From an uncultured virus (IMG/VR IMGVR_UViG_3300022223_000003) (taxonomy: Duplodnaviria > Heunggongvirae > Uroviricota > Caudoviricetes): a stretch of 64,000 nt of DNA. The notes below the pieces were generated by a model. The model saw only the letters and a list, made by a program, of their open reading frames with translations. It had not been told where the DNA came from and did no database searches. Positions 19,402 through 51,940 of this stretch are shown here, piece after piece (the first letter of the stretch is position 1; every line of letters begins with the position of its first letter). The position numbers were made by a program, and so were the translations under genes. Location of the stretch: the IMG/VR virus record IMGVR_UViG_3300022223_000003. The stretch is one strand, 5' to 3'.

Positions 19402-19464
19402 CGTATAACTCAGAGATGGGTTGGAGGCCATGGGTTTTTATCACTACAAACAAAAGTATGAACT

Positions 19465-19827
19465 ATGATCCGAGTCGTCATCGAGAGCCCGCTGGCGGGC
19501 GACTTCGAGCGAAACCGTCGCTACGCGCTGTGGTGCGCCTACCACTGCTGCACCCGAGGCGAGGCGGCCTACGCCAGCCACTTGGTCTTCCCGCAGTTTC
19601 TAGACGACCAGAACCCAGAGCATCGCGAGTTCGGGATTCAGGCCGGGTACGAGTGGGCGCAGTGCGGCGGCATCATTGCCTTCTACTTGGATCTGGGAAC
19701 CAGCTACGGCATGAAGCGAGCCTACAAACGCTGGGAGAACAAGGTCGTCGACGAGCGACGGCTGCCGCGGGAGATGTTCGAGGCTTTCGAGCGCGGCGAA
19801 TACCCTGGAAGCACGGCTGGTTTCTGA
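19465..19827 (+). CDS. DUF4406-like / NDT-like protein
   Basis: VIESPLAGD..RN..YA...ASHL.FPQFLDD...R..G. Confidence 0.65.
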   Translation: MIRVVIESPLAGDFERNRRYALWCAYHCCTRGEAAYASHLVFPQFLDDQNPEHREFGIQAGYEWAQCGGIIAFYLDLGTSYGMKRAYKRWENKVVDERRLPREMFEAFERGEYPGSTAGF

Positions 19828-20558
19828 TGCTCTCTTTTCTTCGTCGGTGGATCACCCCGCGTGTCCAAGAAGAAGAAGAACTGCTGCCGTGTTGCGTCTG
19901 CGGGGTGCGGCCGTGCATCAACTGCGGGTCCTGTTGCGGGTCCGAGGCGTGTGCAGCAGAGTGCGGCCGTTTCATCTTCGAGAACAAAATAACACTGCGC
20001 GAGGCCTCGGAGGAAAGTAAATGAAACCGACACCTCTACCAAAATCCGCGATGCCGATGCAGGGCAAGATCCTGCAACAAGGAAAGTGCGACTACTGCAA
20101 AGGGCGCTACGTGTTGCTGCAACCGAAGGGTGCAGATAATCAGAAACTGATGCACAGCAACCCGCCGTGCAAGAAGTTCGAGGAGGACCCGCAGGCGTAT
20201 TTGCAGTGGCACAGCATGACACGCAGGCAGCGCAGGGTTGCGAAATCGAAGAAGAAAGGCCCTTCGCAGGCGGTCATGAGCCGAGGCCGACGGAGGAAGA
20301 AACAGTGAGTGAAAATAAAGAAAAACACGACGGGCCGTACCCCATCCCTGACGAGTGGGAGTCGGTCTACCACCCCGAGAGCCGTCTATCGAACGGGGAG
20401 CGGGTAGACGATGTAATCAGCGAGCATGACGACGAGATCATCTCACTGCGCCACCGCGTCAAGGATCTCAAAACCCAGGTGCAGGTGACGCGATTCGTTG
20501 TGTTGTTTCTCCTCGCGTCGAACATTTTTCAGGTCATGAGAGGAGCAGGGTGGCTCTG

Positions 20559-20714
20559 ATGAGCGAAGCCAAAAACAACATTTTGGTGCAGACGCGTCTC
20601 TCGAAGACGCCGTACAACTACATCAGGAAGAAGGCCAAGGCTGAAGGCATCAGCGTCGCGGCCTACATTCGTCGAATGATCATCCAAGAGTACGAGGCGC
20701 AGAAGGCGGGCTAG
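20559..20714 (+). CDS. ribbon-helix-helix (CopG-like) DNA-binding protein, 51 aa
   Basis: Manual translation MSEAKNNILVQTRLSKTPYNYIRKKAKAEGISVAAYIRRMIIQEY fits the RHH pattern; TGATG-coupled; below the ORF-track cutoff. Confidence 0.65.
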   Translation: MSEAKNNILVQTRLSKTPYNYIRKKAKAEGISVAAYIRRMIIQEYEAQKAG

Positions 20715-20988
20715 CCGTGTCGGACGGGATCACCAAAAAGGGATGCGGACCCGAGCACGGCCCTACTACATGGCGTTGTAAATGCGGCGCCAAGAAGAGT
20801 ATGCCCGCGTTCATTTTACCCAAGGGTTGGATGGTGCTCACCATGCGCATAGGCACAGGAGAACTGTTGGATCGGAAAGAGGAGCACACCTACTGCGAGT
20901 CGTGTGCCTTCGCGCAGCGTAATGCCTCTACGATGGCAGAAGCGCGCAGGTTGTTGGGCTCAGGGACCAAGAAACTAGGTAGTCGCTG

Positions 20989-21666
20989 ATGGGCTACGTT
21001 GACCTCAACGAAAACAAGCGCACCGATTGGGTAACACCGCTTGACTGCCGTAGGCTGCTCGCGCAGCTGGGGCCGTTGAAGCTCGACGTTTGCACCAACC
21101 CCGACAACCCCATGGGGGCCGAGCAGTTCTACACCTCCAGCGTCAACGGTTTGGAGCAGAGCTGGCAGTGCGGCGGGCTCGTCTGGTGCAACCACCCCTG
21201 GTCGCGCAAGGACTCACCGCTGTGGGTCAACAAGGCGGTGTGCGAGGGGGAGTTGGTGCACAAACGAGCACACGAGGGTGGGATCGCACTTTGTCTTCGA
21301 TGCGGCAAAGATCTAGACGTCCACGTTTTTCTAGGAGATGGGTACTACGTTTGTAGGGATCTCGACGGGTGTTTCGAGCTAGGTAGCACCGAGATCGTCT
21401 TGCTCGGGCCGAGCCGCCCCGATACCGCGTGGTTTCGCAACATCTGGGGGAGCGCCGACGTTATCTACTTCTGGAAAGGTAGGATGACCTTCTGGGACCC
21501 CAGGACGGGAATGCCGCACATGGCGTGGAACAAGAAGACCAAACGCTGGGAAAACCAGCCGGTTCCGGTCCCGGTGCAGCTTTCGTACTGGGGGCACCGC
21601 CCGCACACCTTCGTGGATGTGTTCATGCAGCAGGGCGGTGCGTTCGCATACCCTACACCGTTCTGA
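20989..21666 (+). CDS. phage DNA N6-adenine methyltransferase (Dam-like)
   Basis: DWVTP, LDVC, GL.QSW, VWCNHPWS (variant NPPY), SRPDTAWF and KGRMTF motifs. Confidence 0.8.
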   Translation: MGYVDLNENKRTDWVTPLDCRRLLAQLGPLKLDVCTNPDNPMGAEQFYTSSVNGLEQSWQCGGLVWCNHPWSRKDSPLWVNKAVCEGELVHKRAHEGGIALCLRCGKDLDVHVFLGDGYYVCRDLDGCFELGSTEIVLLGPSRPDTAWFRNIWGSADVIYFWKGRMTFWDPRTGMPHMAWNKKTKRWENQPVPVPVQLSYWGHRPHTFVDVFMQQGGAFAYPTPF

Positions 21667-24794: not shown

Positions 24795-25069
24795 GGCAAA
24801 ACCTGGGATGGGTTGTAGGGATGAGCTGGTTCACGAGCATCTTCTCGAATCGCAAGACCAAGACGTCTTTCATCACCCGTGCTCTGCGACGCGCTCGCAA
24901 CACTGGCGAGAGCTACGCCGAGGCGAAGGCGGCACTCTTGCGAGAAGCCGACCCGGAGTGGCAGGACAGCCAGGAGAAACGGATCAAGAAAGCGGAGATG
25001 CGGTTTCTTGATGACACGAAACCGGACTTCGAGAAGTTGCCCTGATGTCGTGCTCGGATACGACGTGGA

Positions 25070-26184
25070 GTGAAAGGAGACAAAAAGATGTTGGCCTACA
25101 TATCAAAAAAGGCGTGGGCGGTAACCTTGTTGGTGTCGCTGTTTTTAGGAGCGCTCGTGTTCGGTATCGCAACATGTCGCGAGTCGACGATCAAGGCGCA
25201 GCGGGAGGCCTGGGTCGAGGACTGGAAGAAACGAGAGAAGGGTTGTGTTCGTACCTGCGCCGCTTTGGGTGGCAAGAAGACGTATTTTCAACGCATGCAA
25301 CGTGCTGGTTCCTTAGAGCATGATGAGCGCTGCATCTGCAAGACAGCGGCCTGTGCCTACGTCATCACAAACGGGCGTTCGACCGCGTCATGCAAAGAGG
25401 GTCAGAGGACCGACTGATGTCGAAACGCAGCTACACGATTCGCTTGTCCGACAAGGAACTAGCGCGGGTTCTGGACGCCCTGGAGTACCTGCGGTCGTGC
25501 CACCGGCGGGGGATGTTCGAGGCCGCGAAGGAAAACCGCGAGGCATCGGCGATCCACTACGAGCGCGAAATGAACGCGGACCAAGAAGTGTGGGACGCGA
25601 TCGTAAAGAGATTCTGTGACGAGGCGGCGAAAGGAACCGACTGATGCCGAAAAACAAACAACAGCCACCCCGCGGTGAAGTATTGCACGAATACAACCCC
25701 GGGTGCCCTATGCCAGGGGTTGGCGGGCGGCACTCGGATACATACGGGATTGATGGTACAGGGCGCTGCGTTTGGTGCGGTGCAGCGCCAACAATGCCAG
25801 ACGAAGGAACCGACTGATGCCGAAAACCAAGAAAGTACGGATCGCGGTAGCTATCAACTCACGTGGCGAATGGAACTGCGGTGGCTACTGTTGGTTGAAG
25901 ACGGGGGAGCAGTTGGAGACGCTCCCCGACGACGAAGCGGCGGGTAACGCAATCGAGGGGTTGGAATCCGATGAGTACGTCATCCACTTCGTTGAAGCAG
26001 AGATCCCGCTTCCTGTGTCTACGACTGTTCAGGGAAAGGTGACCGACTGATGCTGGCGGTGTACATGGAATGGTGGGCCGCTAATCACCCGTGGTCCGAT
26101 TTCATCGCGATGGCGATGGGGTGGGGCGTGGGTTGGAAGCTCGTTGATCTCGGCTTGTGGATCATGGACCGGAGCACCGACTGA
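25070..26184 (+). other. run of five small hypothetical genes joined by an identical ACCGACTGATG stop/start junction
   Basis: ORFs 25070-25417, 25417-25644, 25644-25817, 25817-26050 and 26050-26184 all end in ...TD*. Confidence 0.8.
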
Positions 26185-26712
26185 TGTCGAAGACCGGAAC
26201 TGCGCAGAGGTTTGAAGAGCTGCGAACAGCGCTGGAACGTGTTCAGCAAAAAAGGCTCGAAGGATGACGATGCACATCAACTTCATTCGTCAACGGTGTG
26301 ATCTGTGCGGACGGTACATCTCGCGCCCCAACTACAGTCGCCATGTAAAGGCGTGCGAGCGTCGATCGAATCAGAAGAAAGGGCTCGACAATGGGGCTTA
26401 GCAGAGTGGACGGTGAGCAGCTCACCGAGTTGATGCGTCTGTCTTGGTCGTTGGCCGTGATCATCAACGGAGGTCGCATCGACAGCGTGGAGGGAGAGTG
26501 GCCCGTCGAAATCACATTCAGACCGGCGATAGCTGACTACGGCACTTGGAGTTGTAAACTCTCGATCGACTTCACCAAAGAGGGCAGAGGTCGTGGTTCG
26601 AGTTTGCATAGCGGCACCGTGTCTTCGATGCTCGACCTCGTGCGCAAAGAGCTTTCGGAACGCCTCGGCGACGGTTACGTGCGTTATTAGCCCCGCAGCA
26701 GAAAGGCCCCAA

Positions 26713-32837: not shown

Positions 32838-33515
32838 ATGGAAAACAGGATCAAAACAGGATCGCAATACGATCGTTACTTCGCTCGCAAGTGGCTTGTG
32901 TTGTATGACGGCGGATCTGATCAGTGGCTCTATGTCGCAAAGTCCGGATCCGGAAGCACGTATGTGTTTTTGGAGATCATTGATTTAGTCGCGTACTGCG
33001 GTCGCGACGCAACGGATCAATGGTGCGCAGAAGTGGCCAGTGTCGACATAGACACTATGCCGCTAGAGCAGATCCAAGGCGCGCTGTCATACTGTGGCGT
33101 TGAGGACGATCCTCCGGACCTCAGAACCGAGTCCGGTTGCGTTGCGCTCGCCGAAATGCTCTTCTCCTACGGCGCCAAAAGCCCGTTGTGGGGGGATTGC
33201 TCCGGTAATCCGAGAGAACACGCGAGTGAGGACTCCAAAGACTTCCGCTCGCTTCGAGCGGAGGCTCGGAGGCAAGCGGAGGCGATGCTTGACGACTCCA
33301 ATCGCGATCATGTGTTGGACACAAAGATCGTGAATGGAATCGGGCAAACATCCCGCGAGTATTCGCAAGGCACTGCCGCCTTGTGGGATACGCTCCGCAA
33401 GATTCGCGACAAAGGCGACGATGCAACCCCAGAACAAAAGCTCGTACTCAAAATGTACGGCAAGTGCAATACGACGTTAGGTGCGGGACCCGTGCCGAGT
33501 GATCTACGTGATTGA
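32838..33515 (+). CDS. hypothetical protein (first gene of early-type region)
   Basis: 225 aa; AAGGGA RBS. Confidence 0.7.
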   Translation: MENRIKTGSQYDRYFARKWLVLYDGGSDQWLYVAKSGSGSTYVFLEIIDLVAYCGRDATDQWCAEVASVDIDTMPLEQIQGALSYCGVEDDPPDLRTESGCVALAEMLFSYGAKSPLWGDCSGNPREHASEDSKDFRSLRAEARRQAEAMLDDSNRDHVLDTKIVNGIGQTSREYSQGTAALWDTLRKIRDKGDDATPEQKLVLKMYGKCNTTLGAGPVPSDLRD

Positions 33516-33593
33516 GACCAGGACCCACACTCGGGGCACATGCCCCGAGTGTGGATCGTGCACTCACTCTGAGTCACGGAAAGGGATTGAAAA

Positions 33594-35204: not shown

Positions 35205-35224
35205 TCGTTTCGTCCATATCCACG

Positions 35225-36024: not shown

Positions 36025-36102
36025 GACTACGACCCACGATCGGAGCTACGGCTCCGACCGTGGATCGTGCGCTCACGCACGAAGGGATGAAAGGAAACAG
36101 GT

Positions 36103-36633: not shown

Positions 36634-36966
36634 ATGGAAACAGAAACACATACGCTCACACGCGACGGGGCACCAGACGTGCGTTTTCGTGGCGCGAAAC
36701 TAGCGGCGGTTTCGTCCTTCAACCACCGAAACAACAACACGCGCTGGACCGAGATCAACATCTACCAAACCTCCCTGCGCGGTCAATACCTCGTGCAAGT
36801 GGTGGGACGGACGCAATGGGTGAATGAGTCCAACCGGTTCGCGGTGCATGTCTGCAAAGACGAGAACGCGGTAATCGAAGCGCTCACCGTCGACGGCTAC
36901 TTGAGCGACCTCGCAAAAGAGGCGCTCGACGACGCTGGGATCGAGTGCGTTGAAATCGTGAAGTGA
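36634..36966 (+). CDS. hypothetical protein
   Basis: bounded by hairpin elements. Confidence 0.65.
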   Translation: METETHTLTRDGAPDVRFRGAKLAAVSSFNHRNNNTRWTEINIYQTSLRGQYLVQVVGRTQWVNESNRFAVHVCKDENAVIEALTVDGYLSDLAKEALDDAGIECVEIVK

Positions 36967-37043
36967 GGCCAGGACCCGTACCCGGAGCAGTGCTCCGGGT
37001 GCGGATCGTGCACTCACGCACGAAGGGATGAAAGGAAACAGGT

Positions 37044-37661: not shown

Positions 37662-37739
37662 GCCCAAGACCCACGGCCGGGGTAGATGCCCCGGCCGTGG
37701 ATCGTGCGCTCACGCACGAGGGAAAATGAAAGGACCGAT

Positions 37740-40325: not shown

Positions 40326-40877
40326 GTGAATAACATGTACTACTCACAGGCGCTCGATTCACTGTTCCGGGAGTTCCCTGATGCAAGATTCGTTGAGAAG
40401 AAATCGAGTTTCTTCATGCGTGTGATCGACGTGTGTTTGCGGATCATCACCCTCGGCGCCATGCGACGGTTCATGACCAACTTCGTGACAGTTGTCGGCA
40501 GCACCGTCTACTTGCCGACGAGCTGGGATGAACGCACCCCCACTCAGAAAGCTGTTTCGATCCACCACGAAATGGTGCATCTACGTCAACGTCGACGCTA
40601 CGGTGGTTTCTTCTTCACGTTGCGGTATCTGTGTTGGCCTCTGCCGACCATCTACGCTTTGGGTAGGCTCCGGCTGGAGCAAGAGGCCTACGAAGAGACG
40701 TTGCGAACGTGGGTGAGATTTCGCGGCCAAACGGTACTCGAAGACGCCGATCTCAGAGAGCATATCGTCTCGCATTTCACCAGCGCGTCGTATTTCTGGA
40801 CATACCCTTTCAAGAGGGAGCTAGAAGTCTGGTACAACCAGACAGTAAAAAAGCTGAAAACTGAAATAAAGGTTTGA
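40326..40877 (+). CDS. HExxH zinc-metallopeptidase-like protein
   Basis: HEMVHLRQ followed by EQEAY. Confidence 0.65.
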   Translation: MNNMYYSQALDSLFREFPDARFVEKKSSFFMRVIDVCLRIITLGAMRRFMTNFVTVVGSTVYLPTSWDERTPTQKAVSIHHEMVHLRQRRRYGGFFFTLRYLCWPLPTIYALGRLRLEQEAYEETLRTWVRFRGQTVLEDADLREHIVSHFTSASYFWTYPFKRELEVWYNQTVKKLKTEIKV

Positions 40878-40901
40878 CAGACAATATCAGTGTGGTATTG
40901 T
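40874..40901 (+). promoter_or_regulatory. promoter of the tracrRNA/cas12 unit with palindromic operator
   Basis: TTGACA-N16-TATTGT with extended -10 TG; ACAATATCA-N3-TGGTATTGT inverted repeat. Confidence 0.7.
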
Positions 40902-40907: not shown

Positions 40908-41110
40908 AGTCGAAAGACAGAGGTTCGAGACTACTGCAATCGGGGTGTTGTGTGAAACTATTTTAGGTCACCTCCATGACCTGAAGCTGAGAAAGTAACT
41001 GGACATGCCCAACATGTTGGGGGAAGTCAGCCCAGAAGCGCTCGGCAATAGCAGCGATGACGCTGCGCCCATCCCTAACACACGACACCTCGATTGGAGC
41101 AGTCTCGGAC
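40908..41110 (+). ncRNA. putative tracrRNA / scaffold RNA for the Cas12 effector
   Basis: Hairpin 40962-40985 with loop CCTCCA complementary to repeat 3' end TGGAGG; GCCCATCCC at 41067-41075 complementary to repeat GGGATGGGY; long closing stem 40923-40954 with 41079-41110. Confidence 0.75.
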
Positions 41111-41126
41111 AAGAAACGGGAAACAC

Positions 41127-42611
41127 ATGGCAGACGGTACGGTGAACCAAGAACCCGCGTTGCAGGGCTCGATTGAGATCGTTCGTGCAACGATGAAAAT
41201 CGCGGTTGAGCCGTGGCGTGTGTTGGACGACGCGACGGAAGAGCAGCGTAAGGCGCACGACAAAAAGAAGTGTGGAGGCAAGTCCAAGTGCGAGGCATGC
41301 GTTTTGATCGACAGCCTCTACTCGGCTCAGCGTATGTGTGCCGCGACGGCAAATCTGATAGCTCGTCATCACGAGCGTCGGGATGGTGCCACGTTCGAGG
41401 AGTTGAAGCTTCAGGGCGAGAAAATCAAACTGGAGCGGATCGTTCGAGACGGCTATGCGCTGGGTCGTGCAGCCTATCCCGAGCTGAATGCTGGCATCAC
41501 AGCAGCTATCTCGAAGCAGGTGGAAGACAAGTGGAACAGCGAGCGCATCGCAATCTTAGCTCGAAACGAGCGGTCAGCGGCGCGCTGGAACGCGGACAAC
41601 GCTCCGATCCCACTCCGGCACGCCGACGTCGAGCTGGTTGAGACCAGCAACCGAAACCGCTTCTTGCTTCGGTGCACGTTGCAACCTGGGCTCAAGAAAG
41701 AGCGTCGAGGCAAGCAGTGGGCGATTCCGCTCTACGCCAAGGATCAGAAGGCCTACAAAATGCTCCACGCTATTACGACAGGCGAGTGGCGCATCGGCCA
41801 GCTTCAGCTCCAACGAGATCGCCAAAAGAAGTGGTATCTGCGCATTGCGTACAAGCGCCGTGTCGAGTTGTCGGACAACACCGTGAAGTGGGCCGCGGTC
41901 AACCGCGGGATCTTCTATTTCTTGGCTGTCGCAACCGAAGACGCAAACGACAAACCGTTGCTTTACGATGGCAGCGACATCGAGGCCCATCTCAAGCAGA
42001 CCCAAGACCGGCGCAAGCGGTTTCAGCGTGCCTACCCTCTCAGCGGTCGAAAAGGTAAAGGCCGGAAGAAGGTGTTGGCCCCGACAAACACGCTCGCAGG
42101 GAAGACCGAGCGTTGGCGCAAGACCCGGATTCAGACGATTGCCCGGCGCGTAGCGCAGTGGCTCGCCTCGAACCACGTGACACATCTGGCCATCGAGGAT
42201 TTCTCCGGTATCCGGGACGGGAAGATCGAGCTACTGGAGGGCGGCAAGAAGGTCTGGGACAGAATCCAGACGTGGCCCTATTTCGAGATGGGCACCCGGT
42301 TGAAAGCCTGCTGCGAAGAGTTTGGAATCGTCGCGGTCGAGATCGATCCAAACTGGTCTGCTCGGACATGTCTCAAGTGTGGGCACAGACACGAAGACCG
42401 TAAGGTGCGTCGGTGGTTCAACTGCGAAGCCCCCAAATGTGGGTACAGTTCACAGATCGACATCCTGACCGCGAGAAACCAAATCCTGAAGGCCCGCGAG
42501 CGGTTCAGTGACGAGTCCGAGGCAACCGCGGAATACGTCGAGAAAAAGAAGCCCAAGAGACTTCAGAAAAAGACCGCTCGCAAAAATGGCGGCAACAGCT
42601 CGAAATCGTAG
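41127..42611 (+). CDS. cas12: compact type V effector (Cas12f/TnpB-like, about 494 aa) with substituted RuvC-I residue
   Basis: RuvC-I WAAVNRG (Asn where Asp is expected), RuvC-II IEDFSGI, WPYFEM...K, SARTCLKCG...CEAPKCG zinc finger, RuvC-III IDILTARN; abuts a CRISPR array. ORF track starts at TTG 41094, but ATG 41127 lies just past the RNA stem. Confidence 0.9.
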   Translation: MADGTVNQEPALQGSIEIVRATMKIAVEPWRVLDDATEEQRKAHDKKKCGGKSKCEACVLIDSLYSAQRMCAATANLIARHHERRDGATFEELKLQGEKIKLERIVRDGYALGRAAYPELNAGITAAISKQVEDKWNSERIAILARNERSAARWNADNAPIPLRHADVELVETSNRNRFLLRCTLQPGLKKERRGKQWAIPLYAKDQKAYKMLHAITTGEWRIGQLQLQRDRQKKWYLRIAYKRRVELSDNTVKWAAVNRGIFYFLAVATEDANDKPLLYDGSDIEAHLKQTQDRRKRFQRAYPLSGRKGKGRKKVLAPTNTLAGKTERWRKTRIQTIARRVAQWLASNHVTHLAIEDFSGIRDGKIELLEGGKKVWDRIQTWPYFEMGTRLKACCEEFGIVAVEIDPNWSARTCLKCGHRHEDRKVRRWFNCEAPKCGYSSQIDILTARNQILKARERFSDESEATAEYVEKKKPKRLQKKTARKNGGNSSKS

Positions 42612-42627: not shown

Positions 42628-44117
42628 CTGGAAACGGGTGCAGAGCTTGGGATGGGTTGGAGGAATGGATGGCGTGTATTGGACGTCGACGTTGCCGGCT
42701 GGAAACGGGTGCAGAGCTTGGGATGGGTTGGAGGTTATCGCCGACCACCAGCCCTTCGCCGGGTACCACCTGGAAACGGGTGCAGAGCTTGGGATGGGTT
42801 GGAGGATGTGCTCCGTCTCCGCCTTTTTGAACGCCGCGAGTCTGGAAACGGGTGCAGAGCTTGGGATGGGTTGGAGGATCACGGGACCCGTTGCTCCTGC
42901 GCTCTCGCGGTGCCTGGAAACGGGTGCAGAGCTTGGGATGGGTTGGAGGTCCAGGGCAGTGAACATGGAGTCCATGAGGTTGTTCCTGGAAACGGGTGCA
43001 GAGCTTGGGATGGGTTGGAGGCTTTCCGCCCAAACGGGCGCACGGGTACGGTCACGCCTGGAAACGGGTGCAGAGCTTGGGATGGGTTGGAGGCTCGTCG
43101 GGGTGATCGAAGACGCAGTGCGCCGATTTCTGGAAACGGGTGCAGAGCTTGGGATGGGTTGGAGGATAGCCAAGCGCTGGCCACGCTGCGATCCGGCCGA
43201 GATCTGGAAACGGGTGCAGAGCTTGGGATGGGTTGGAGGTTCTCCGGCCACCATGGCCATGCCATTCCATCCCGAACTGGAAACGGGTGCAGAGCTTGGG
43301 ATGGGTTGGAGGGCAAGAAGACAAGGGGTGGAGCGTGGGTCTCCAAGCCTCTGGAAACGGGTGCAGAGCTTGGGATGGGTTGGAGGGTTACCGCCGTGCA
43401 GGTTGGTCGGTGGGCGATCGGGCTGGAAACGGGTGCAGAGCTTGGGATGGGTTGGAGGCAGCCGAGCCTCGATCGAGGCCTTCGCACCCGTGAACCTGGA
43501 AACGGGTGCAGAGCTTGGGATGGGTTGGAGGAATGTGTCACACCCCCTTGAACCACACATTTCCACAATACTGGAAACGGGTGCAGAGCTTGGGATGGGT
43601 TGGAGGGGATGGGAACCAGGTCGCGTAACGGAAAACGGGGTTCCTGGAAACGGGTGCAGAGCTTGGGATGGGTTGGAGGTCCGACTCGATCAACAAGCTG
43701 ACGCACGACATCGAGCTGGAAACGGGTGCAGAGCTTGGGATGGGTTGGAGGCCCAAGGTCAGAAGCCAACCGCCAGGAGCGCTCCGATGCTGGAAACGGG
43801 TGCAGAGCTTGGGACGGGTTGGAGGTCGACGATCTACCCGCACCCACGACAAAGGATGCCAAGGTCGAGGTCGGTGCAGAGCTTGGGATGGGTTGGAGGT
43901 GTGGGTGGGGAAGGGAGCATGGGCCCTCTTTGACAGGTCGAGGTCGGTGCAGAGCTTGGGACGGGTTGGAGGCCTGGCGCGAGATAGGGGTGGCGCTTCG
44001 GCGGCGGAGAGTCGAGGTCGGTGCAGAGCTTGGGATGGGTTGGAGGCGTGACGCCATCGTAGCGCCGGGCGAGAGTCGAGAGTCGAGGTCGGTGCAGAGC
44101 TTGGGATGGGCTGGAGG
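42628..44117 (+). CRISPR. CRISPR array, 21 repeats of 36 bp (CTGGAAACGGGTGCAGAGCTTGGGATGGGTTGGAGG), 20 spacers of 35-39 bp
   Basis: Repeat starts 42628, 42699, 42770, 42842, 42914, 42986, 43058, 43130, 43204, 43277, 43351, 43423, 43496, 43571, 43644, 43716, 43790, then 5'-variant GTCGAGGTC repeats at 43864, 43937, 44011, 44082. Orientation inferred from 5'-TTN flanks and distal degeneration. Confidence 0.98.
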
Positions 44118-44345
44118 CAATACCGGGCGGCGCAAACAAGAATGGGCTGGAAGCAATAACTCGTGTGGTACGTTGAAAACGGATGCAGTGTTTGGGATGG
44201 ATCGGAGGTAGAGGTTAGGCGGGTGGCACGCAGGCGACACAGCTCGGGATGGGCTGGAGGACCGGATACGGCACATTTAGGATGGGCTGGAGGGGGCGCT
44301 ACCTGTGTCCTCGGATGGGTTGGAGGGAGGCGCAGACAATCAACA
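44118..44345 (+). CRISPR. trailing degenerate/half-repeat units with short spacers
   Basis: GATGGGYTGGAGG-like ends at 44153, 44208, 44260, 44293 and 44326. Confidence 0.8.
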
Positions 44346-44357
44346 CGAAAACGGAGC

Positions 44358-44387
44358 TTGACAGACAATACCACTCTGGTATTGTCT
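44358..44387 (+). promoter_or_regulatory. promoter with perfect palindromic operator
   Basis: TTGACA-N16-TATTGT; AGACAATACCA-CTC-TGGTATTGTCT. Confidence 0.75.
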
Positions 44388-44398
44388 ACGGACACAGC

Positions 44399-44602
44399 AT
44401 GAAAGACGCACCTTGCAAATGGTCAGTGGTTTCGATCGACGCGGCGCTCATTGCGCGCATCGTATTCGGCCCGACCCTTGACGAAGATGCCTGCGACACC
44501 GCGGCTGAGGCTTACCACATGTGTCGCGCTCTTCCGGGAGAAGAGGTACACATCGTGTGCGATCACCACCCTGTCGTGCAGAGCATTCAACCTGCGAACT
44601 GA
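44399..44602 (+). CDS. hypothetical protein (67 aa)
   Basis: ATG immediately downstream of the promoter. Confidence 0.5.
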   Translation: MKDAPCKWSVVSIDAALIARIVFGPTLDEDACDTAAEAYHMCRALPGEEVHIVCDHHPVVQSIQPAN

Positions 44603-44612
44603 AAGGATTTCT

Positions 44613-44700
44613 GGGACGAACGGTTGCCGAAACAAGACGTTGGTTCTCTCATTCTCCGGCGTTGGCCTTCGGGTTGGAGGTTCGATTCCTCCTCGTCCTT
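44613..44700 (+). tRNA. atypical tRNA-like RNA, anticodon undetermined
   Basis: acceptor stem GGGACGA/TCGTCCT, canonical T-arm GGAGG-TTCGATT-CCTCC, variable arm GGCC-TTCG-GGTT; non-canonical D and anticodon arms. Confidence 0.6.
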
Positions 44701-44845
44701 CCGGGTTGATATTGTGCGAGTCGCACGACAACCCGCTGGCAGCTGCCCGGCTCGCTTGATCTCCCCCTTCAAGTAGAGCCGGGCAGCCCCAGCCCTTATC
44801 AACGGCCCCCTGTAGGGCTATAGTGCCAACAGGAGAGGAGCCGTT

Positions 44846-45475
44846 GTGAAAAGAGTTGTCGATCTAGAGCCCTACGAAGTGTGGTTGAAGTCTGAAGGTT
44901 ACCAGGACAGCACGATTTTGGTGACGCTGCGACACATCCGAGGCGTCTACAACACCTTCAAAGACTACCCCGAGCGCGGCAAGAGCCGGGACAAGGCCCC
45001 CCACGTCCGACGATACCTGCGCTTCGTCGCCAAGACCCGCAAGAACCCTCTCGGGCGCAAGTTCACCGAGACGATGCTGGGTCTCGGTCTCGAACCATCG
45101 ACAGCAATCGAGAAGCAAGGCAAACGCGACGGCCGGTGCCTGACCCCCGCACAGTGGAAAGCGTTGCGGCAGCAGCTTCAGGCCGGAGACGACATCGCCA
45201 AGCTGCTCGTCGCGTACATGGAGAGCCCCTACCGCATCGGCGACTTCCTGAACCTCCGGGCGTACGAGGTCACGTCCGACGACGTCTCTCACAAACCGTC
45301 TCTGGAGTGGATCAGAAAAACAGGAGGTCGTCGACCCCTGTACCGACTCTTGTGTTCGACGCAGCGCTGCGCCTACTACCGTATGCGCAGTCGATTGCAG
45401 CGCCTGAGCGAGAAACTGAAGTTCGAGACCAATCTCGACAACCTCTACAAGACCTACCACCAGCAGGCGGCATAA
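44846..45475 (+). CDS. degenerate tyrosine-recombinase-like protein
   Basis: N-terminal WL..EGY..STI core-binding-like segment and box I-like PYRIGDFLNLR; HxxR and the C-terminal catalytic Tyr region are absent. Confidence 0.55.
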   Translation: MKRVVDLEPYEVWLKSEGYQDSTILVTLRHIRGVYNTFKDYPERGKSRDKAPHVRRYLRFVAKTRKNPLGRKFTETMLGLGLEPSTAIEKQGKRDGRCLTPAQWKALRQQLQAGDDIAKLLVAYMESPYRIGDFLNLRAYEVTSDDVSHKPSLEWIRKTGGRRPLYRLLCSTQRCAYYRMRSRLQRLSEKLKFETNLDNLYKTYHQQAA

Positions 45476-45737
45476 CTCGATGTTCGTGAAGTTCAACCAA
45501 GTTGTGTTACGGGTGGTGAAAAAACACCCTATCGAGTTCACATCTAAACCTGAGCTGAACGGAGAAACTTACATCAAGGTGGGAGACGTGTCGTGTGTCA
45601 ACGACATGGATTCGTCTTGGAGTGAACACGGTCTCGTTTTTTCTGTCGTGTGGTTCACCATGGGAAGGAAAGTTCTGGTAGAAGGGACTGCGGAAGAAGT
45701 GATCCGCAAACTGGGGCTAGGGGCTAGGTAGCAACGA

Positions 45738-46145
45738 ATGAGAATCTTGACCACACACCATGTCGACGCCTTCAACCGGATGCACGTCCGTGTGACGTCT
45801 TTCCCGAAAACACATGTCCCGGGAGACGACAAATACCCCAACGATCCATACGACTGTTGTGATCTCTACACCCTCGAAATCGCAGGTGACGCCGTAAACG
45901 GCGGTGTACACGAGACCGAGCTGTCGTTTCAGACGGGGCCAGTCAAAGAGGCAGGGGTCAACGGCATCAGCAACGAAGCGCTACTTGCGGTGTTGATCGA
46001 CCGGCTTCAGTGTTTCCAACGTGGCCCGCAACGCTGCCGAGAAAACTCGATCGCGCTCACGAAGCTCGAAGAGGCGATGCACTGGCTCGCAGCCAGATCC
46101 CGAGATCGTGAGGCACGGGGCGTCGAAGGGGCCTCTGACCCGTAG
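45738..46145 (+). CDS. tad1: Tad1-like (Thoeris anti-defence 1 / Acb2-fold) signal sponge
   Basis: FQTGPVKE..VNG...LL..LIDRL..FQ.GP..CREN..ALTKLEEA.HW...R..DRE.RGVEG follows the Tad1 family pattern as I recall it. Confidence 0.8.
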   Translation: MRILTTHHVDAFNRMHVRVTSFPKTHVPGDDKYPNDPYDCCDLYTLEIAGDAVNGGVHETELSFQTGPVKEAGVNGISNEALLAVLIDRLQCFQRGPQRCRENSIALTKLEEAMHWLAARSRDREARGVEGASDP

Positions 46146-46336
46146 CCGGGCACAGGGGCTTCGTTTTTTCGACCTGAAACGTCGGCTTTTCAGAGAGATC
46201 CACGTATGTTAGGCTAGACACGGAGCCCTGAAACTCTGTTGCCATGGTTGTAGCCAACTTCCATCCCTTTGGTGGGGTCTCAAACCCGCCCTGCGACGGT
46301 GTGTGGCGATGCTAAGCAGCGTGAAGGTGGTGTAGC

Positions 46337-46612
46337 GTGTCTTTTCCGAATCTACAGCTCAAACCTGGAGGTGTGTTGCATTCCGTCGCGACGGGTGTTC
46401 CTGTCGACGGTGACAACACGTTTGAGCTTGGGTTCGATCTCGAAAACATCAATGACGAGTGGCTCCGCATTGATGTCTTCGCGCTAGGTTCTCAGGTCAC
46501 AGGGGCAACCTATGTATCTCGCTCAGGTACGCAGGTGACAATGAACTTCACACAGCTCGGAACAGATCAAGCCCGAGTTGAGGCAAAGATCATTCACTCC
46601 TCTGTTCGGTAG
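46337..46612 (+). CDS. small beta-rich hypothetical protein
   Basis: 91 aa ending HSSVR. Confidence 0.55.
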   Translation: MSFPNLQLKPGGVLHSVATGVPVDGDNTFELGFDLENINDEWLRIDVFALGSQVTGATYVSRSGTQVTMNFTQLGTDQARVEAKIIHSSVR

Positions 46613-46884
46613 TAACTGTGGCTGCGGTGCGGGGATGTTGACTCAAGAACAGCAGGAACTACTGCACGACATCGCCAGCATTTTGGCGGGTGTCGTCTTT
46701 GTTTTAGAACTCGACAGACCTCCAACCGAACGAGAGTTGGAAGTGATGCGGGTTTGTCGAGACAAGTTGAAAGAGCTGAGAGACAACATCAGGTGACAGT
46801 AGATAGGTAAAGGTCGAGAGGAGCGCAAGCGCAAGGAAAACGGTTGTAAGATGGGTTGGAGGAAGAGGAAGAGGAGAGTCTACG

Positions 46885-47589
46885 ATGCGATGTCCGTTGT
46901 CTCTATTCCTGTCACTTCTAGCGGTGGTGTTTCTACTGTTCTATCCGTTGCTGTTGAAAGCCAACCCGCCTCCCCTGCTGACCCACGACTCTAACCCGGA
47001 GTTCCCCGAGACTGCGCTGACTGATCTGGAAGAAGAGCTGGCCTGGTCAATCAGTCTCGTCGCGGCCAACGAGGGTGCACTTTGGGGTTTGATGGACGTC
47101 GCACTGGTGCACCAAGTCGTCGTAGCCAACGTGTCTCAGCGTCCTAACTACCCTACTGAGACGTTGGAACGCCACATCGAGTTCTTGAAGAAACACAGCG
47201 GCCGGGTGCTTGGAGCCAAACCGTGTTTTGAGACAGGTAACTGCCAGTGGGTGCGCCAGCTCTCGAAGACGGCCCACAAACTACCGGCCTCGGTAGCCAG
47301 TGGTTCGGGGGGACCGAAAGACTGGGAAGCCTACTGGCGCATCGAGATGGCCCCGCGCTGGCAGAGGGTCATGGACTTCAGCCGAGCGCTCGTCTCCGGC
47401 GAGGTCGTCGTCAAACCGTGTCGCATCGAGCCCCGTACTTGGGGCAGCCTCAAAAACGGGCTCCCGGATCTCGAAGTCGCCTTGGCCAACGGTCTGTGGC
47501 CCATCGGTTGTAAAGGCACCCGCAACGACGGGTTTGCACCGCTTTCGGGCTGGCCTGTGGCACGTTTGGACACGAATGTCCGGTGGTAG
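46885..47589 (+). CDS. secreted/membrane-anchored hypothetical protein
   Basis: N-terminal signal/TM segment; AGGAG RBS. Confidence 0.6.
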   Translation: MRCPLSLFLSLLAVVFLLFYPLLLKANPPPLLTHDSNPEFPETALTDLEEELAWSISLVAANEGALWGLMDVALVHQVVVANVSQRPNYPTETLERHIEFLKKHSGRVLGAKPCFETGNCQWVRQLSKTAHKLPASVASGSGGPKDWEAYWRIEMAPRWQRVMDFSRALVSGEVVVKPCRIEPRTWGSLKNGLPDLEVALANGLWPIGCKGTRNDGFAPLSGWPVARLDTNVRW

Positions 47590-47726
47590 TACCCTCGGAG
47601 CAGCGGAGCCGATCTTCTTCTCCCTGTCGAGGATCTCGCCCTCGTGCTCGATGCACCCGTTTCTTCCCGTTTCGGGGTTTCTGTTCACGAGGGCGACCGC
47701 TTTTTGATATGGGTTAGAGGGCTGCC

Positions 47727-48119
47727 GTGGCTCAGTGGACCAAAAATCGACGCAGACACCGCAAGGTCAAAGGGGTCCCACCCGGATGGAAGGGATGCCG
47801 CTGCCCACGGGGTTCGAGGCGCGTCGCGACGTTTCGGTACGACGCGAACGGGAAAAAGGTCAAGACCGGCAGAGGGTGGGGGTGTCTGGGAGTCGGCCCT
47901 TCCCAGAAGGGCAAACCATCGCCCCGTTTCGTGAAAGCAGAATGCCCCCCGGCACCCGAGCTGCCGCTCGGGCCTCCTGAACCACCGAGACTGCCACCAC
48001 CACCTCCGACACCCAAGCTGCTAGTAGTCCCTGCACCCAAACTGCTCCCGGCTGCATCCCCTCCGACCAAACGCAAAAAGAGAGTCGCAGCTCGGGCAAC
48101 GAAAAGAACCAAACCTTGA
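47727..48119 (+). CDS. basic Cys/Pro-rich hypothetical protein
   Basis: 130 aa, K/R-rich with Cys pairs. Confidence 0.5.
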   Translation: MAQWTKNRRRHRKVKGVPPGWKGCRCPRGSRRVATFRYDANGKKVKTGRGWGCLGVGPSQKGKPSPRFVKAECPPAPELPLGPPEPPRLPPPPPTPKLLVVPAPKLLPAASPPTKRKKRVAARATKRTKP

Positions 48120-48225
48120 GCGTTCAATCCAGGCGGTACCCGACGTGTGTGGTTTGATTTGCATCACCACCCCGAGTACAATACCAGTACGTCGCTAGTG
48201 GCCAAAAACCGTTCTGAGGTAGCTC

Positions 48226-48717
48226 GTGAAACACGTACCCATCGACGCGCACCGCATCTTGCCCAAGCTCTGGATCGGCAGCTATCCGAGGGTGCCTGAA
48301 ACACGCAACCACTTCGATGCTGTCGTGCTGTGCGCCCAAGAGCTGCAAGAGCTGCCGTACTCCGGTGTCCACGTCGTCAAAGCTCCGATGGACGACGCAA
48401 CACCTACGGCACGCGAGCTGAAGACGGCCGTGAGCGCGGCTCAAACCGTCCACGCCCTGCGCAAGCGAGACAAGCGGGTGCTCGTGACGTGTGCCCAGGG
48501 CGTCAACCGATCGGGTTTCGTCACGGCCTTGGCCATGATGCTCGAAGGCTACAACCCTGAAGACGCGCTCTACTGCATCCGAAAGTACCGACACCCGCCC
48601 ATCGGCATGATGCCGCTCAGCAACCCGGCGTTCGTCCAGGTGCTGACTAGGTTGGGACGCAACGCGGGGCGCGAGCGTCGTCAACTATCCAGTTTTTCTG
48701 GTTTTTCCAGGGGCTAG
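48226..48717 (+). CDS. dual-specificity / tyrosine protein phosphatase
   Basis: LWIGS, DD loop and VLVTCAQGVNRSG (Cx5R). Confidence 0.88.
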   Translation: MKHVPIDAHRILPKLWIGSYPRVPETRNHFDAVVLCAQELQELPYSGVHVVKAPMDDATPTARELKTAVSAAQTVHALRKRDKRVLVTCAQGVNRSGFVTALAMMLEGYNPEDALYCIRKYRHPPIGMMPLSNPAFVQVLTRLGRNAGRERRQLSSFSGFSRG

Positions 48718-48774
48718 GCCATTCGGGTCCGAAGTGGTAGACTGCCAAGGACACCCTCCTGAAAGGGGCGACCC

Positions 48775-49098
48775 GTGGCCGCATACGAACTCCGAAACCC
48801 TGACGACGTCCGGCGCTTGTTCAGCGCCCTGGGCGACCAAATGGAGCACGAGGCCGGGGCTCTGAGTGTCGCGGAGTTAGACCAGATGGCTCTCCAGGCC
48901 GTCGAAGATGATGGGAGCATGTTCGCCCTCGGGTTGACCCTTCTGGTCGCCGCAGGAGCCGCCTGGTCGGCCGTGCGGGGCTACCAGCGCAACGACGGGT
49001 CGGTGCCGTGGGGAGTCGCCTGGGGGGCGCTGGGATACCTGTTCCCCGTCCCGGCAATCGTCTACTCCGCGGTGGCGCAGCGTCCCCTCGAACTGTAG
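48775..49098 (+). CDS. membrane protein
   Basis: two C-terminal hydrophobic helices. Confidence 0.6.
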   Translation: MAAYELRNPDDVRRLFSALGDQMEHEAGALSVAELDQMALQAVEDDGSMFALGLTLLVAAGAAWSAVRGYQRNDGSVPWGVAWGALGYLFPVPAIVYSAVAQRPLEL

Positions 49099-49927
49099 AG
49101 GGGCTCCCGCATGTTCTGGACGGTTGGGAGATGAGATGGGTTGGAGTAGGTGGAACGCAGTAGAGCGCAGTAAACGCCCATCCGACCTCGGAGTCTGGCG
49201 AGGCCAAGGGCGATGGGGGGTCTCAACCCTCAACCCGACGGCCGTCGGCGACATCTACGTCACGCTCTCCGAGGATCTCGGCAGCGCCATCTCCTACGCG
49301 AAGGAGCGGGCCTACCAAAGCGGTGAGCCCTACGAGCGCGATCCCGAGCGCCGACCGGGAGAACCCCCACACCCGAGCGTTCGTGGTCGCATCTACTACG
49401 TGTTCGAGGCTCCTCGCAGAGAGATGGCCTACGAAGACATCGTGCCGCTGTTTCGGGCGCTGCGCGGGCGCCGCGGCGGGGTTGAGACCCTCATCGTCGA
49501 GAAGAACACGGGGTTGACAGCGCACGACCCGCCGAAGATCCGGTGGAAGAAGGCTCGCGGTCTCGAAGAACGTGTCCCTGACTACGAGGCCGAGATGGAC
49601 ATTCGAGCGGCTCGACGTAAAACCGAGCAGATTGCGCCCGAAGATCGAACCCTACGGAGAAAGAGGTGAGACGGTGACCACTCGAGGTCACATGCTCGTC
49701 GAGAACGAGTCACCGCCCAGCTCCTACGCCATTGCCGATCTGGTAGCGGGTGAGCCCGGCGCGCTCAGTCGGACGTTGAGCCTGACATTGCAACGCGCTT
49801 TCTTCGTTGCACCTGGTCTCTACGTCGCAGGTATTCGAGACCGACAGCTGTTGCTAGGGTCGTTCTACGGGTCGATCGGTATCTCGCTCTGGCTCGTTGG
49901 TCTCTACAGCTTGAAGGCTCGACGGGC

Positions 49928-50299
49928 ATGAGTTTCTGGCAACACGTCTGGAACCGGCTCAAGGCCATCCCAGTGGGAGTGTGGGCAGCCCTGGGTGTGG
50001 GTTTGACGCTGCTCGGGCTCTATCTACGAGGCCGACGTCTGGAAGCGGAAATCGCTCGAACCAAACTCAAAGCAGAGGCTGCCAACGCCAAGGCTCAAGC
50101 AGCTCGATCGGGGGGTCGCGCAGAGGTGCACCTCGATGCCGCAGCGAAACACCGAGAGCGTGCGATCGCTCTGGAACATAGCTCCAAGGTAGTGCGTGCA
50201 GAAGGAGAGAAAGAGCAACGACGTCTCGCGGCACTACCGCCTGACAAGATCACCGAGGAGTATCTGAAACTCGCGATGAAAAAGAGATTGGAGCAATAG
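49928..50299 (+). CDS. membrane-anchored coiled-coil protein (spanin-like architecture)
   Basis: N-terminal TM plus helical Ala/Glu/Lys-rich body. Confidence 0.45.
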   Translation: MSFWQHVWNRLKAIPVGVWAALGVGLTLLGLYLRGRRLEAEIARTKLKAEAANAKAQAARSGGRAEVHLDAAAKHRERAIALEHSSKVVRAEGEKEQRRLAALPPDKITEEYLKLAMKKRLEQ

Positions 50300-50376
50300 A
50301 CCGTGCCCTACGACCTCAACATCGACCTGAGTGGAGGGTTGATGGGACTGCCGAGCTGGAAAGGGAAGAGACGCCA

Positions 50377-50949
50377 ATGAGCAGAGCGGACAAACACTTC
50401 GAGGAGTTCATCGACGCCTACTTCGAGACCGCGTTGTGGTCCAGCAACGACGAGTCAACGCCCGAAGGCGGTGAACCGATGGACAAGAACTACGGTGTCG
50501 AAGATTTCAACCCGACGGTTTACCAAAACCTGCGGAACGATGCTCGACGTTTCTTCGACGCACACTACGACAAGTTCCACGGAGGCCCTACCGGACCCAG
50601 CGGTGCGAGCCCGTATGCGATGGCCGGACACGACTTCTGGTTGAACCGCAACGGGCACGGCGCCGGTTTCTGGGACGGGGACTGGCCCGACCCCGAAGCA
50701 ACCGCACTGGACGCAGCCAGCAGAAGCGCGGGTGAGATCGACCTCTACGTCGGCGACGACAACAAGATCTACGCGGGGGGTTTCGAGACCGCACAGCCCG
50801 CACGCTCGATGCCCGCCACCCGACAACGTCCGCGCACTGAGGGAGAGCGCATGACCGATTTCTTCTTCGGTCGACGCGGTACGCGCAAGCGACGCGGTTT
50901 GAGCGGTGGTTTGCTGGGACTTCCAAGCTGGAAGGGCCGGAGACAGTGA
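50377..50949 (+). CDS. conserved-looking phage hypothetical protein
   Basis: AY...ALWSS and AGHDFWLNRNGHGAGFWD motifs. Confidence 0.7.
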   Translation: MSRADKHFEEFIDAYFETALWSSNDESTPEGGEPMDKNYGVEDFNPTVYQNLRNDARRFFDAHYDKFHGGPTGPSGASPYAMAGHDFWLNRNGHGAGFWDGDWPDPEATALDAASRSAGEIDLYVGDDNKIYAGGFETAQPARSMPATRQRPRTEGERMTDFFFGRRGTRKRRGLSGGLLGLPSWKGRRQ

Positions 50950-51392
50950 TGATCGTGCGGCTCTGGTACGCTAAGCTGTCGGTCCTGCTCGTCCCCGGCC
51001 TGCTGCTGATGCTCCCCCTCTCAGCACAGGCTGACGACAGGACCGACCCCTACGCAACCCCGCACGTGGAGACCGGCGAACCCGGGGTGTGGATTCCGCT
51101 CTGGTTGCAACAGGTGCACCTACAGACCGACGCAAAACTCCAGACCTGTGTCGAGTCCAGCAACAAGGACCGCCAAGCTCTCGCAGAACGCTCCGAAGAG
51201 GCCACGACCGCCTCCCAAGCCGCCGAGGAGCTGCGAGAAGCCAACACGAGCCTCCAGCGATCCCTGGAAGCCTCAGAAGCTGCTCACGCCCAGCAGCAGG
51301 ATGACGCCGAAACAAGGCTCGTATGGGCGTGGACTTCCACCGGGGCCGCGACTGTGGCAATCTCGGTCTTGGTCTTGGTACTGGTGAACTGA
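50946..51392 (+). CDS. protein with signal peptide, coiled coil and C-terminal TM
   Basis: hydrophobic ends, helical middle. Confidence 0.6.
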   Translation: MMIVRLWYAKLSVLLVPGLLLMLPLSAQADDRTDPYATPHVETGEPGVWIPLWLQQVHLQTDAKLQTCVESSNKDRQALAERSEEATTASQAAEELREANTSLQRSLEASEAAHAQQQDDAETRLVWAWTSTGAATVAISVLVLVLVN

Positions 51393-51940
51393 TGCCCAAA
51401 GATCCCGAAACCGTCACCTGGGGGGAGGTCTGCGAAAACGTCCGGTTCGGAGACGGCCTCTACTCGAAGTGCCGTGAGAAAGTTTCCGACTACCCCGCTG
51501 GCGGACGTCGAGGGTTCGCCGGTGGTGCTTTCGACGAGGTCCCCGGTCACGACACGGGACCGAGTTTCGAGCAGCAGCTCCGAAAAACAGCTTTGAAGGT
51601 GCCGGAGCCCCCCAGCGCCGAGGACTTGGCCAAATACCCACCCGGGTACGGCGAAGGTCCCGAAATCTTCGGGATGCCTTTGAACCAGGTGCTGATGTAC
51701 GGCGGGGCTGCTCTCGTCCTGGCATGGCTTTTGATGCGCAACAAGATGCCACAGGCCACCAAAAAAGAAGCTCCAGACTCGGGACGGGTTGGAGGGAGCG
51801 TGACATCACCCAAAGCGGCGTGATAGGCTCCTCGTAAACCCGGCCTCCGTGGTGGAGCCCGGATGTAGCAGAGGAGAGAGCCCTTCCCCCCAGCTGAGCG
51901 CGTAAGAGGTGGAAAGCTCCACGTTCTAGGAGAATGAGAA

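Follow-up and report, generated by a model that had tools for sequence, protein, structure and literature searches.

Orphan half-repeats of a CRISPR array scattered through the genome of a phage with a Cas12f-like effector

Introduction

The 64,000-nucleotide (nt) stretch of DNA analysed here (IMG/VR record IMGVR_UViG_3300022223_000003, an uncultured virus assigned to the Caudoviricetes; "the window" denotes this whole stretch) carries a CRISPR array next to a gene for a Cas12f-like effector. Outside this array, the last ∼13 nt of the repeat are present six times, always on the + strand (19415, 24807, 46850, 47708, 49135 and 51783). We refer to the last 13-16 nt of the 36-nt repeat as the ‘handle’, and read the six sites as orphan CRISPR handles: the single-unit end state of a process in which arrays shrink and scatter, mostly inert or incidental sources of guides, and not a dedicated regulatory network. 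We hold this interpretation with about even confidence, and weigh it below against several others.

Results

The 3' end of the repeat recurs outside the array

A scan of the window with the 13-mer GATGGGTTGGAGG, allowing up to two mismatches, returned 33 matches against 1.72 expected, of which 25 fall within the array region and eight outside it (six on the + strand, two on the − strand); the two − strand matches, each with two mismatches, are at chance level. The six + strand copies comprise two exact ones (19415-19427 and 46850-46862), three with a single mismatch (24807, 49135 and 51783) and one with two (47708), so that 73/78 letters of the core are identical (five mismatches), between flanks that are unrelated. 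When all 25 12-mers of the repeat were tested in turn, enrichment outside the array was confined to the last four (4-6 matches on the + strand, none on the − strand), while the remaining 21 had 0-2 matches each, strands summed. A 15-mer gave eight + strand and no − strand matches at up to three mismatches, and 26 versus 11 at four mismatches, a bias that is partly due to the G-richness of the + strand. Under a null model aware of Shine-Dalgarno sequences, of the 76 + strand GGAGG sites that lie outside the array, three are preceded by 10 letters of which 8 or more match the repeat, compared with 0.04-0.10 expected.

None of the sites is preceded by sequence with significant similarity to the repeat's 5' 23 nt (P 0.12-0.66), which identifies the copies as true half-repeats; each stops precisely where repeat and spacer meet, and further upstream the resemblance is lost in all six. 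The alternative that 46850 and 49135 are near-full-length decayed repeats was thereby ruled out (P 0.12-0.14). All six copies lie on the transcribed strand (two-sided P about 0.03).

The original prediction, that the 3' part of the repeat recurs far from the array and only on the + strand, is thus borne out well above chance and above a Shine-Dalgarno-aware background, as are the two exact copies of GATGGGTTGGAGG and the identity of GGGACGGGTTGGAGG (51781-51795) with the end of variant array repeats, two of them, of the GACGGG type. Near matches listed at 24804-24819, 49135-49147 and 47709-47720 are also present, but a further copy at 29366 is weak (four mismatches of 15) and was left out of the six. 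Similarly, GGAAAACGGTTG does precede the 46850 copy, but its proposed resemblance to the 5' end of the repeat is insignificant.

Genomic context and downstream sequences of the six copies

Gene context was assigned from open reading frames (ORFs), a codon-usage score trained on 11 long genes, and family matches (Table 1). Five of the six copies are intergenic or at a gene start, in keeping with the earlier description of most sites as gene boundaries; the exception, 51783, falls within an ORF, the final one of the block that shows coding signal on the + strand in this stretch. The first copy is 37 nt 5' of an ATG and flanked by two nucleoside-deoxyribosyltransferase-like genes, and the second occupies the 26-nt gap between a thymidylate-synthase-like gene and the next ATG. 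Spacing between handle and start codon is 37, 1, 22 and 6 nt at the first four sites; at the fifth the start lies inside the motif (ATG at 49136, 5 nt after GGGAG and in frame with an ORF ending at 49669), and the sixth is inside an ORF, with no start. This irregularity indicates that the handles are not a uniform ribosome-binding site (RBS) device. A GGAGG-like core 5-10 nt before a start is found only at 47708, which precedes a GTG by 6 nt and could act as an RBS, its core being weakened. A consensus scan detected no sigma-70-like promoter beside any of the six sites, and no paralogy was found among the genes that flank them.

The earlier statement that the sequences downstream of the handles have no convincing targets inside the window was confirmed by a search for a protospacer-adjacent motif (PAM) plus seed: there were none, the best TT-flanked seeds being 7-8 nt long, at chance level. 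BLAST of the downstream 30-mers against the window and related loci returned self-matches only, and no spacer of any searched locus matches a handle-downstream sequence. The window and related loci therefore offer no instance of the trait expected of CRISPR RNA (crRNA)-like regulators, a spacer partly matching a PAM-bearing promoter or gene.

Two local candidates were rejected. On the same strand as the third copy and complementary to it is CCTCCAACC (46719-46727), and a long-range fold of 46719 with 46854 is no more stable than shuffled sequences (z −0.39). A D-arm-like run after 47708 gave no transfer RNA (tRNA) and no Rfam match.

Table 1. Positions of the orphan handles and of the effector locus in the window
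Feature	Position	Strand	Context or basis
Orphan handle 1, GATGGGTTGGAGG, 0 mismatches	19415..19427	+	Between ORF 18928-19401 and ORF 19465-19827 (DUF7768)
Orphan handle 2, TGGGATGGGTTGTAGG	24804..24819 (core 24807)	+	Between thymidylate-synthase-like gene stop (24794) and ATG 24821
Orphan handle 3, 0 mismatches	46850..46862	+	22 nt upstream of ATG 46885
Orphan handle 4, TATGGGTTAGAGG, 2 mismatches	47708..47720	+	3' of terminator-like hairpin 47665-47677; weakly coding stretch next
Orphan handle 5, GATGGGTTGGAGT	49135..49147	+	Contains likely start codon of next gene
Orphan handle 6, GGGACGGGTTGGAGG	51781..51795 (core 51783)	+	Within final 40 nt of ORF 51323-51823
Promoter-like sequence, TTGACA-16-TATTGT	40874..40901	+	Upstream of tracrRNA and cas12f
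Candidate tracrRNA (ends approximate)	40912..41093	+	Fold; comparative anti-repeat and loop analysis
Cas12f-like effector, 505 amino acids from TTG (ATG 41128 alternative start)	41094..42611	+	Pfam and PDB matches
CRISPR array, 21 copies of 36-nt repeat, spacers 35-39 nt	42628..44117	+	Starts 16 nt past effector stop codon
Array tail of decayed units, the final three being half-repeat units	44118..44326	+	

Related loci contain shrinking and scattered arrays

Related effector loci (designated L followed by a number) and two full relatives, G001 (= L084, 182 kilobases (kb)) and G002 (105 kb), were compared with the window. In L004 there is a gradient from units of 36 + 38 nt beside the effector gene to units of 18-50 nt with progressively less of the repeat's 5' part. 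Repeats detected in L005, L024, L013 and L082 are mostly 27-70 nt apart, compared with ∼72 nt in a regular array. In L005 and L024, five to six clusters are found no further than about 6 kb from the cas gene, with 61 of 62 matched units on the cas strand, and the clusters inspected begin directly after stop codons. L004, L005 and L024 are syntenic (71-96% DNA identity) and share a few mini-spacers exactly, cluster content being otherwise different. A three-unit mini-array in L024 (13282-13361) separates two genes that overlap (TGATG) in L005 (about 14040), which shows that such units are gained or lost at gene junctions. The arrays of L016 and L017 are interrupted by 2.7-4.7 kb of genes; genes between array parts in relatives have no Pfam family at the curated cut-off, only four weak sub-cut-off matches.

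In related loci, arrays contract to units with a 13-16-nt handle and a 15-25-nt spacer, which form co-oriented mini-clusters between genes, indicating that short handle units and scattering between genes are a family trait. Since such units make up whole arrays, a half-repeat is, to judge from these arrays, probably a sufficient crRNA handle. Single units scattered over tens of kb have so far been seen in the window only. Conservation of this far dispersal, suggested earlier as a check, did not prove general: G002 has no repeat copies outside its array, and G001 has one remote three-unit cluster (10020-10105, − strand; spacers of 19 and 15 nt), which is separated from the array by 52 kb, precedes a same-strand gene and carries the G001 variant of the handle. 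Self-targets of G001 and G002 spacers amounted to short matches with no TTN flank, and a search for mini-spacer targets among the related loci yielded only the array-to-array sharing of L004, L005 and L024.

Closer relatives of the window were also sought. GenBank phages gave no DNA match to the phage and, at the protein level, only distant TnpB-like matches; searches of IMG/VR yielded nothing related to the primase and nothing closely related to the effector; neither 185,579 species genomes nor IMG/VR gave a match to the repeat, and the effector family was not found in those genomes either. One 4.9-kb metagenome contig (L001) is identical to the phage. Comparison of 44341-52340 (array excluded) with three DNA runs recovered the identical phage in two and short identical pieces in the third, with no informative variants.

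A candidate tracrRNA contacts the retained segment twice

The leader preceding the effector gene (∼180 nt) has a predicted fold of −94.2 kcal/mol (z −7.2 versus shuffles) in which GCGCCCAUCCCUAA is left unpaired. An unpaired anti-repeat, CCCATCCC (41068-41075), pairs with GGGATGGG of the repeat, and a hairpin loop, CCTCCA (40971-40976), pairs with TGGAGG at the repeat end. An energy scan for the trans-activating CRISPR RNA (tracrRNA) was too noisy in G+C-rich DNA, and a comparative analysis of anti-repeats and loops was used instead. Aligned leaders of the relatives share the core motifs GGGGGAAGCAAGCCC and GCGCTCGCCAA; the L018 leader has the same architecture (z −6.0), and the fold of the L022 leader is not significant (z −1.2). 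In about 10 relatives, an anti-repeat in or near the leader matches the repeat of its own locus, so that the two co-vary.

Complementarity between the loop and the terminal 4-6 nt of the locus's own repeat was found by script in 11 loci and by alignment in two more, and the loop occurs in four sequence states: CCTCCA/ACTCCA with repeats ending in TGGAGG (the window, L024, L022, L011 and L015, with L003 and L004 via alignment), CCTGCA/ACTGCA with TGCAGG (L014, L016, L017 and L007), ACTGCC with GGCAGG (L020), and ACCGCAC with GTGCGGG (L018). The script placed no such hairpin in eight further loci; alignment recovers L003 and L004, and six remain. On this comparative evidence the leader is a predicted tracrRNA with two contacts, an anti-repeat and a hairpin-loop pseudoknot, both confined to the repeat's final ∼15 nt. 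The proposal that the segment retained at the six sites is the tracrRNA-complementary one is thereby upheld. Cas12 tracrRNAs typically form a pseudoknot with the repeat 3' end, and one phage Cas12 structure resolves just 10 nt of the repeat together with 17 nt of guide (10.1101/2025.01.20.633832).

Predicted pairing of the six sites with the anti-repeat, ranked from strongest to weakest, amounts to −23.0, −16.7, −16.5, −15.3, −15.2 and −9.7 kcal/mol, compared with −20.9 for the canonical repeat and, at 73 other GGAGG sites used as controls, a mean of −10.6 and a 5th percentile of −15.8 kcal/mol. The strongest value belongs to 24807, which is on par with the canonical repeat; four handles lie near the 5th percentile of the controls, and 47708 is at background level. 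Pairing is thus below canonical at five of the six sites, and four have lost one or two G of the GGGATGGG block.

The RuvC-I aspartate of the effector is replaced

The effector matches Cas12f1-like_TNB (7.6e-10) and OrfB_IS605 (7.6e-06) in Pfam, and its best PDB sequence match is a Cas12f1 chain (9i8y, 1.2e-25). Several traits of type V-F systems are present, including a compact effector with a TnpB/Cas12f-type RuvC domain and a zinc ribbon, an adjacent array, and a predicted tracrRNA with an anti-repeat; the RuvC triad (Asp, Glu, Asp) is not intact. RuvC-I (residue 270) reads VNRG, compared with V/IDLG in Cas12f chains; at this position 14 of the 15 family members have Asn, and the remaining one has His. 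RuvC-II has Glu or Asp (Gly in 1/15), RuvC-III has Asp (Glu in 1/15), and the zinc-ribbon cysteines are largely kept. The RuvC-I Asp is a catalytic residue in RuvC-type nucleases, and an effector with Asn in its place may bind DNA but not cleave it. With 14 relatives (33-55% identity), the family is small, and it was found only on metagenome or viral contigs. No cas1, cas2 or cas4 was noticed among the scanned ORFs.

The array appears aimed at a replication gene

The last five repeat copies of the array diverge in their 5' part, and in the array tail the last two units measure 33 nt each (14-nt handle, 19-nt spacer). Five of the 20 spacers (1, 5, 8, 14 and 15) imperfectly match the phage's own primase-helicase gene (27/35, 32/36, 32/38, 32/37 and 31/36 letters, respectively) at 3438-3472 (−), 3727-3762 (−), 3623-3660 (+), 4997-5033 (+) and 4346-4381 (+), with the 5' flanks TTC, TTT, TTC, TTG and TTC. 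The TTN 5' of all five near-protospacers argues for a TTN PAM and for a crRNA in which the repeat lies 5' of the spacer. In the clearest matches (5, 8 and 14), mismatches fall at every third base, as in wobble positions. These alignments suggest that the array is aimed at the replication gene of a close phage relative.

Two near-identical promoter-like sequences bracket the tracrRNA-cas12f-array unit; the twin of the one in Table 1 lies at 44358-44385, just behind the array, and the consensus of both is TTGACAGACAATAyCAsTsTGGTATTGT.

Other features of the window

The window is phage-like DNA with genes for a primase-polymerase/VapE helicase (2753-5074), a family A DNA polymerase, Dam, a ParB-like protein, a thymidylate-synthase-like protein, an amidase and an Acb2/Tad1-like protein; from 2.7 to 52 kb, those ORFs that match a family are on the + strand. 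The Acb2/Tad1 hairpin-domain gene (45738-46145), of a sponge family directed against Thoeris and the cyclic-oligonucleotide-based antiphage signalling system (CBASS), lies in the accessory region 3' of the array, 700 nt before the 46850 copy. Also behind the array, at 44660-44700, the handle-like TCGGGTTGGAGGTTCGATTCCTCC leads into a hairpin resembling a tRNA T-arm (44669) and may be the remnant of a tRNA end; ARAGORN detected no tRNA and Rfam gave no match there.

A second family of boundary repeats is formed by a ∼76-nt intergenic element with a G+C-rich hairpin (e.g. CCACGATCGGAGC..GCTCCGACCGTGG), present in six copies at 33512-37733 between genes that belong to no known family. At 25398-26191 there are four to five copies of the short motif (A)GGAACCGACTGATG(C/T)CGAA, apparently at the starts of small genes. 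Directly after the primase-helicase gene, A+T-rich tandem repeats of 23 and 42 nt (5063-5257) may constitute a replication origin.

Discussion

The shrinking and scattered arrays of related loci lead us to read the six sites of the window as single-unit ends of the same process. Older array units would lose the 5' half of the repeat together with the far end of the spacer, and units or small clusters would end up between genes, co-oriented with them, after which deletion between direct handles could leave a single handle. Strand and position suggest that orphan handles would be transcribed inside + strand messenger RNAs (mRNAs), where pairing with the tracrRNA would still be possible, in most cases less strongly than for array repeats; any that were loaded would yield guides matching their own locus only, at which the handle stands in place of a TTN PAM. 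Shrinkage is supported within the window array itself, which passes from full units through repeats with a changed 5' part to the two 33-nt units, and the absence of PAM-plus-seed targets, the lack of adjacent sigma-70-like promoters in the consensus scan and the non-paralogous flanking genes also speak for orphan handles.

Several observations weigh against this interpretation. The 13-nt core is well kept (5/78 mismatches), which fits selection or a very recent origin better than slow decay, and the presence of all six copies on the transcribed strand hints at a role at the RNA level. No relative shows a cluster in the region 18-23 kb upstream of the array, which holds two of the copies, and G002 is free of copies outside its array. 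Among GenBank phages, IMG/VR and the species genomes, no syntenic close relative was found that could reveal an ancestral cluster at the six junctions, and no traces of second units next to the orphan handles were demonstrated.

The well-kept core and the strand distribution would be accommodated if the handles were functional RNA-level elements in mRNAs that recruit the tracrRNA and the Cas12f-like protein, either turning the downstream 15-25 nt into non-canonical guides or causing the leader of the next gene to be cut, stabilised or occluded. We consider this unlikely on balance, if a serious candidate. It agrees with the location of five of six copies at gene boundaries and with the retention of both tracrRNA contact segments, as well as with the half-repeat units that build arrays in several relatives and make the handle probably sufficient. 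The 24807 copy is predicted to pair like a canonical repeat and four others lie near the 5th percentile of the GGAGG controls, but four sites are short of one or two G in the GGGATGGG block and pairing at 47708 equals background. The Asp-to-Asn change at RuvC-I suggests a binding-type effector, for which self-derived guides would be harmless, and the phage Cas12 structure in which only 10 nt of repeat and a 17-nt guide are resolved (10.1101/2025.01.20.633832) is compatible with so short a handle. Nevertheless, no targets were found in the window and related loci, distances to start codons are irregular with one site inside a coding end, and the two full relatives do not share the genome-wide dispersal. 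A more far-reaching version, in which a probably nuclease-inactive, DNA-binding Cas12f-like family has 13-nt handles sown through operons so that mRNAs serve as guide precursors or regulated leaders, appears to us improbable.

A recombinational origin is, in our estimate, more doubtful still. Handles would here be scars left when the junction of repeat and spacer in an array, be it that of the phage itself or of a competitor, recombined with a matching genomic protospacer, with the repeat end replacing the PAM, or else joints for the exchange of gene cassettes. Such events would account for copies that end exactly at the repeat-spacer junction and lose their likeness upstream in all six cases, for the successive handles at 46850, 47708, 49135 and 51783 that bracket one to several genes, and for the L016 and L017 arrays split by 2.7-4.7 kb of genes. 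Homology between spacers and genome does exist, given the five spacers homeologous to the primase gene of the phage itself, yet no spacer in the searched loci matches a handle-downstream sequence, and recombination should place handles on both strands, yet six of six are on the + strand.

That the handles are decoys, resembling RNA anti-CRISPRs (Racr) and titrating the Cas12f effector of a host or rival phage, we regard as very unlikely. Solitary repeat units in a viral genome are what such decoys look like, and the Acb2/Tad1-like anti-defence gene near the 46850 copy recalls the frequent proximity of such units to acr genes (PMC10651486). The units match the phage's own array, however, so that the effector being titrated would be that of the phage itself; they retain just 13-16 nt and not the whole repeat, the consensus scan found no upstream promoter, and the species genomes lack both the repeat, which is missing from IMG/VR too, and the effector family.

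The notion that the copies are chance matches or ordinary RBSs resembling the GGAGG end of the repeat is close to untenable: 47708, 6 nt before its GTG, could be an RBS, and the G-rich + strand explains part of the strand bias at four mismatches, but the 12-mer, Shine-Dalgarno-aware and 15-mer tests refute it except as a partial contribution, GGAGG is damaged in three copies (GTAGG, AGAGG, GGAGT), and four sites have start spacings of 37, 1 or 22 nt, or none.

Orphan handles have partial counterparts in known systems. CRISPR-bearing genomes contain an excess of partly degraded ectopic repeats, which Shmakov et al. 2023 (PMC10120712) interpret in terms of dynamic gain and loss, and the window resembles them in harbouring degraded copies of its own repeat outside the array, the excess there being tied to the presence of the system. 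Those cases are mostly type I and V-A, with copies inside the cas locus and mini-array spacers that partly match promoters (PMC10120712), whereas here a phage Cas12f-like system with a tracrRNA has only the 13-16-nt 3' handle in copies up to 23 kb away inside operons, and no promoter target was found in the window for the handle-downstream sequences. Racr units (Camara-Wilpert et al. 2023, PMC10651486) are likewise solitary, intergenic and viral, and one of our handles is also near an anti-defence gene, but Racr units are whole repeats that mimic the host repeat, have their own promoter and belong to elements without cas genes (PMC10651486). The present phage has its own effector, tracrRNA and array, its copies are half-repeats, its repeat was not found in the species genomes or IMG/VR, and the consensus scan gave no promoter directly upstream of the copies. 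Virus-borne mini-CRISPR arrays have been implicated in inter-virus conflict (Medvedeva et al. 2019, as cited in PMC10120712); they too are virus-encoded and aimed at close relatives, but use host Cas proteins and whole repeats, in place of the own effector, tracrRNA and lone handles seen here. Nuclease-dead Cas12f clades have been described, one of them near CRISPR arrays, and one locus described there contains interspersed repeat-like guide units (PMC12259090). These proteins share with ours changes in the RuvC active site, but they are bacterial (Bacteroidetes), C-terminally truncated and often linked to a sigma factor (PMC12259090); ours is phage-borne and full length, keeps the zinc ribbon and RuvC-II/III, and differs only in the RuvC-I Asp-to-Asn change, from which a loss of activity may follow.

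An mRNA segment that pairs with the anti-repeat could, in principle, become a guide, as non-canonical crRNAs do. For Cas9, Jiao et al. 2021 reportedly obtained such crRNAs from cellular transcripts through pairing with the tracrRNA. A Cas12 counterpart has reportedly been described (PMC11246509). Complementarity in those cases is fortuitous or engineered, whereas the handles reported here are true copies of the repeat end.

Ectopic repeat copies are thus already known; what is combined here is a minimal, tracrRNA-contacting piece placed in sense inside operons, arrays of minimal units in relatives, and a conserved change in a catalytic residue of the effector family. A literature search found no description of arrays with 13-16-nt repeats and 15-25-nt spacers scattered between genes, although supplements of published papers may list such loci. 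If minimal units work, they would represent the smallest natural crRNA handle for a Cas12f-type protein, and would illustrate the trimming of arrays that lack an adaptation module down to their functional core. Were the far-reaching version above true, RNA-guided gene control or inter-phage warfare would be written in intergenic junctions and not in one array. If the lone handles work as well, phage mRNAs would double as guide sources; if they are inactive, they would provide a clear example of the decay and dispersal of a CRISPR array in phage genomes.

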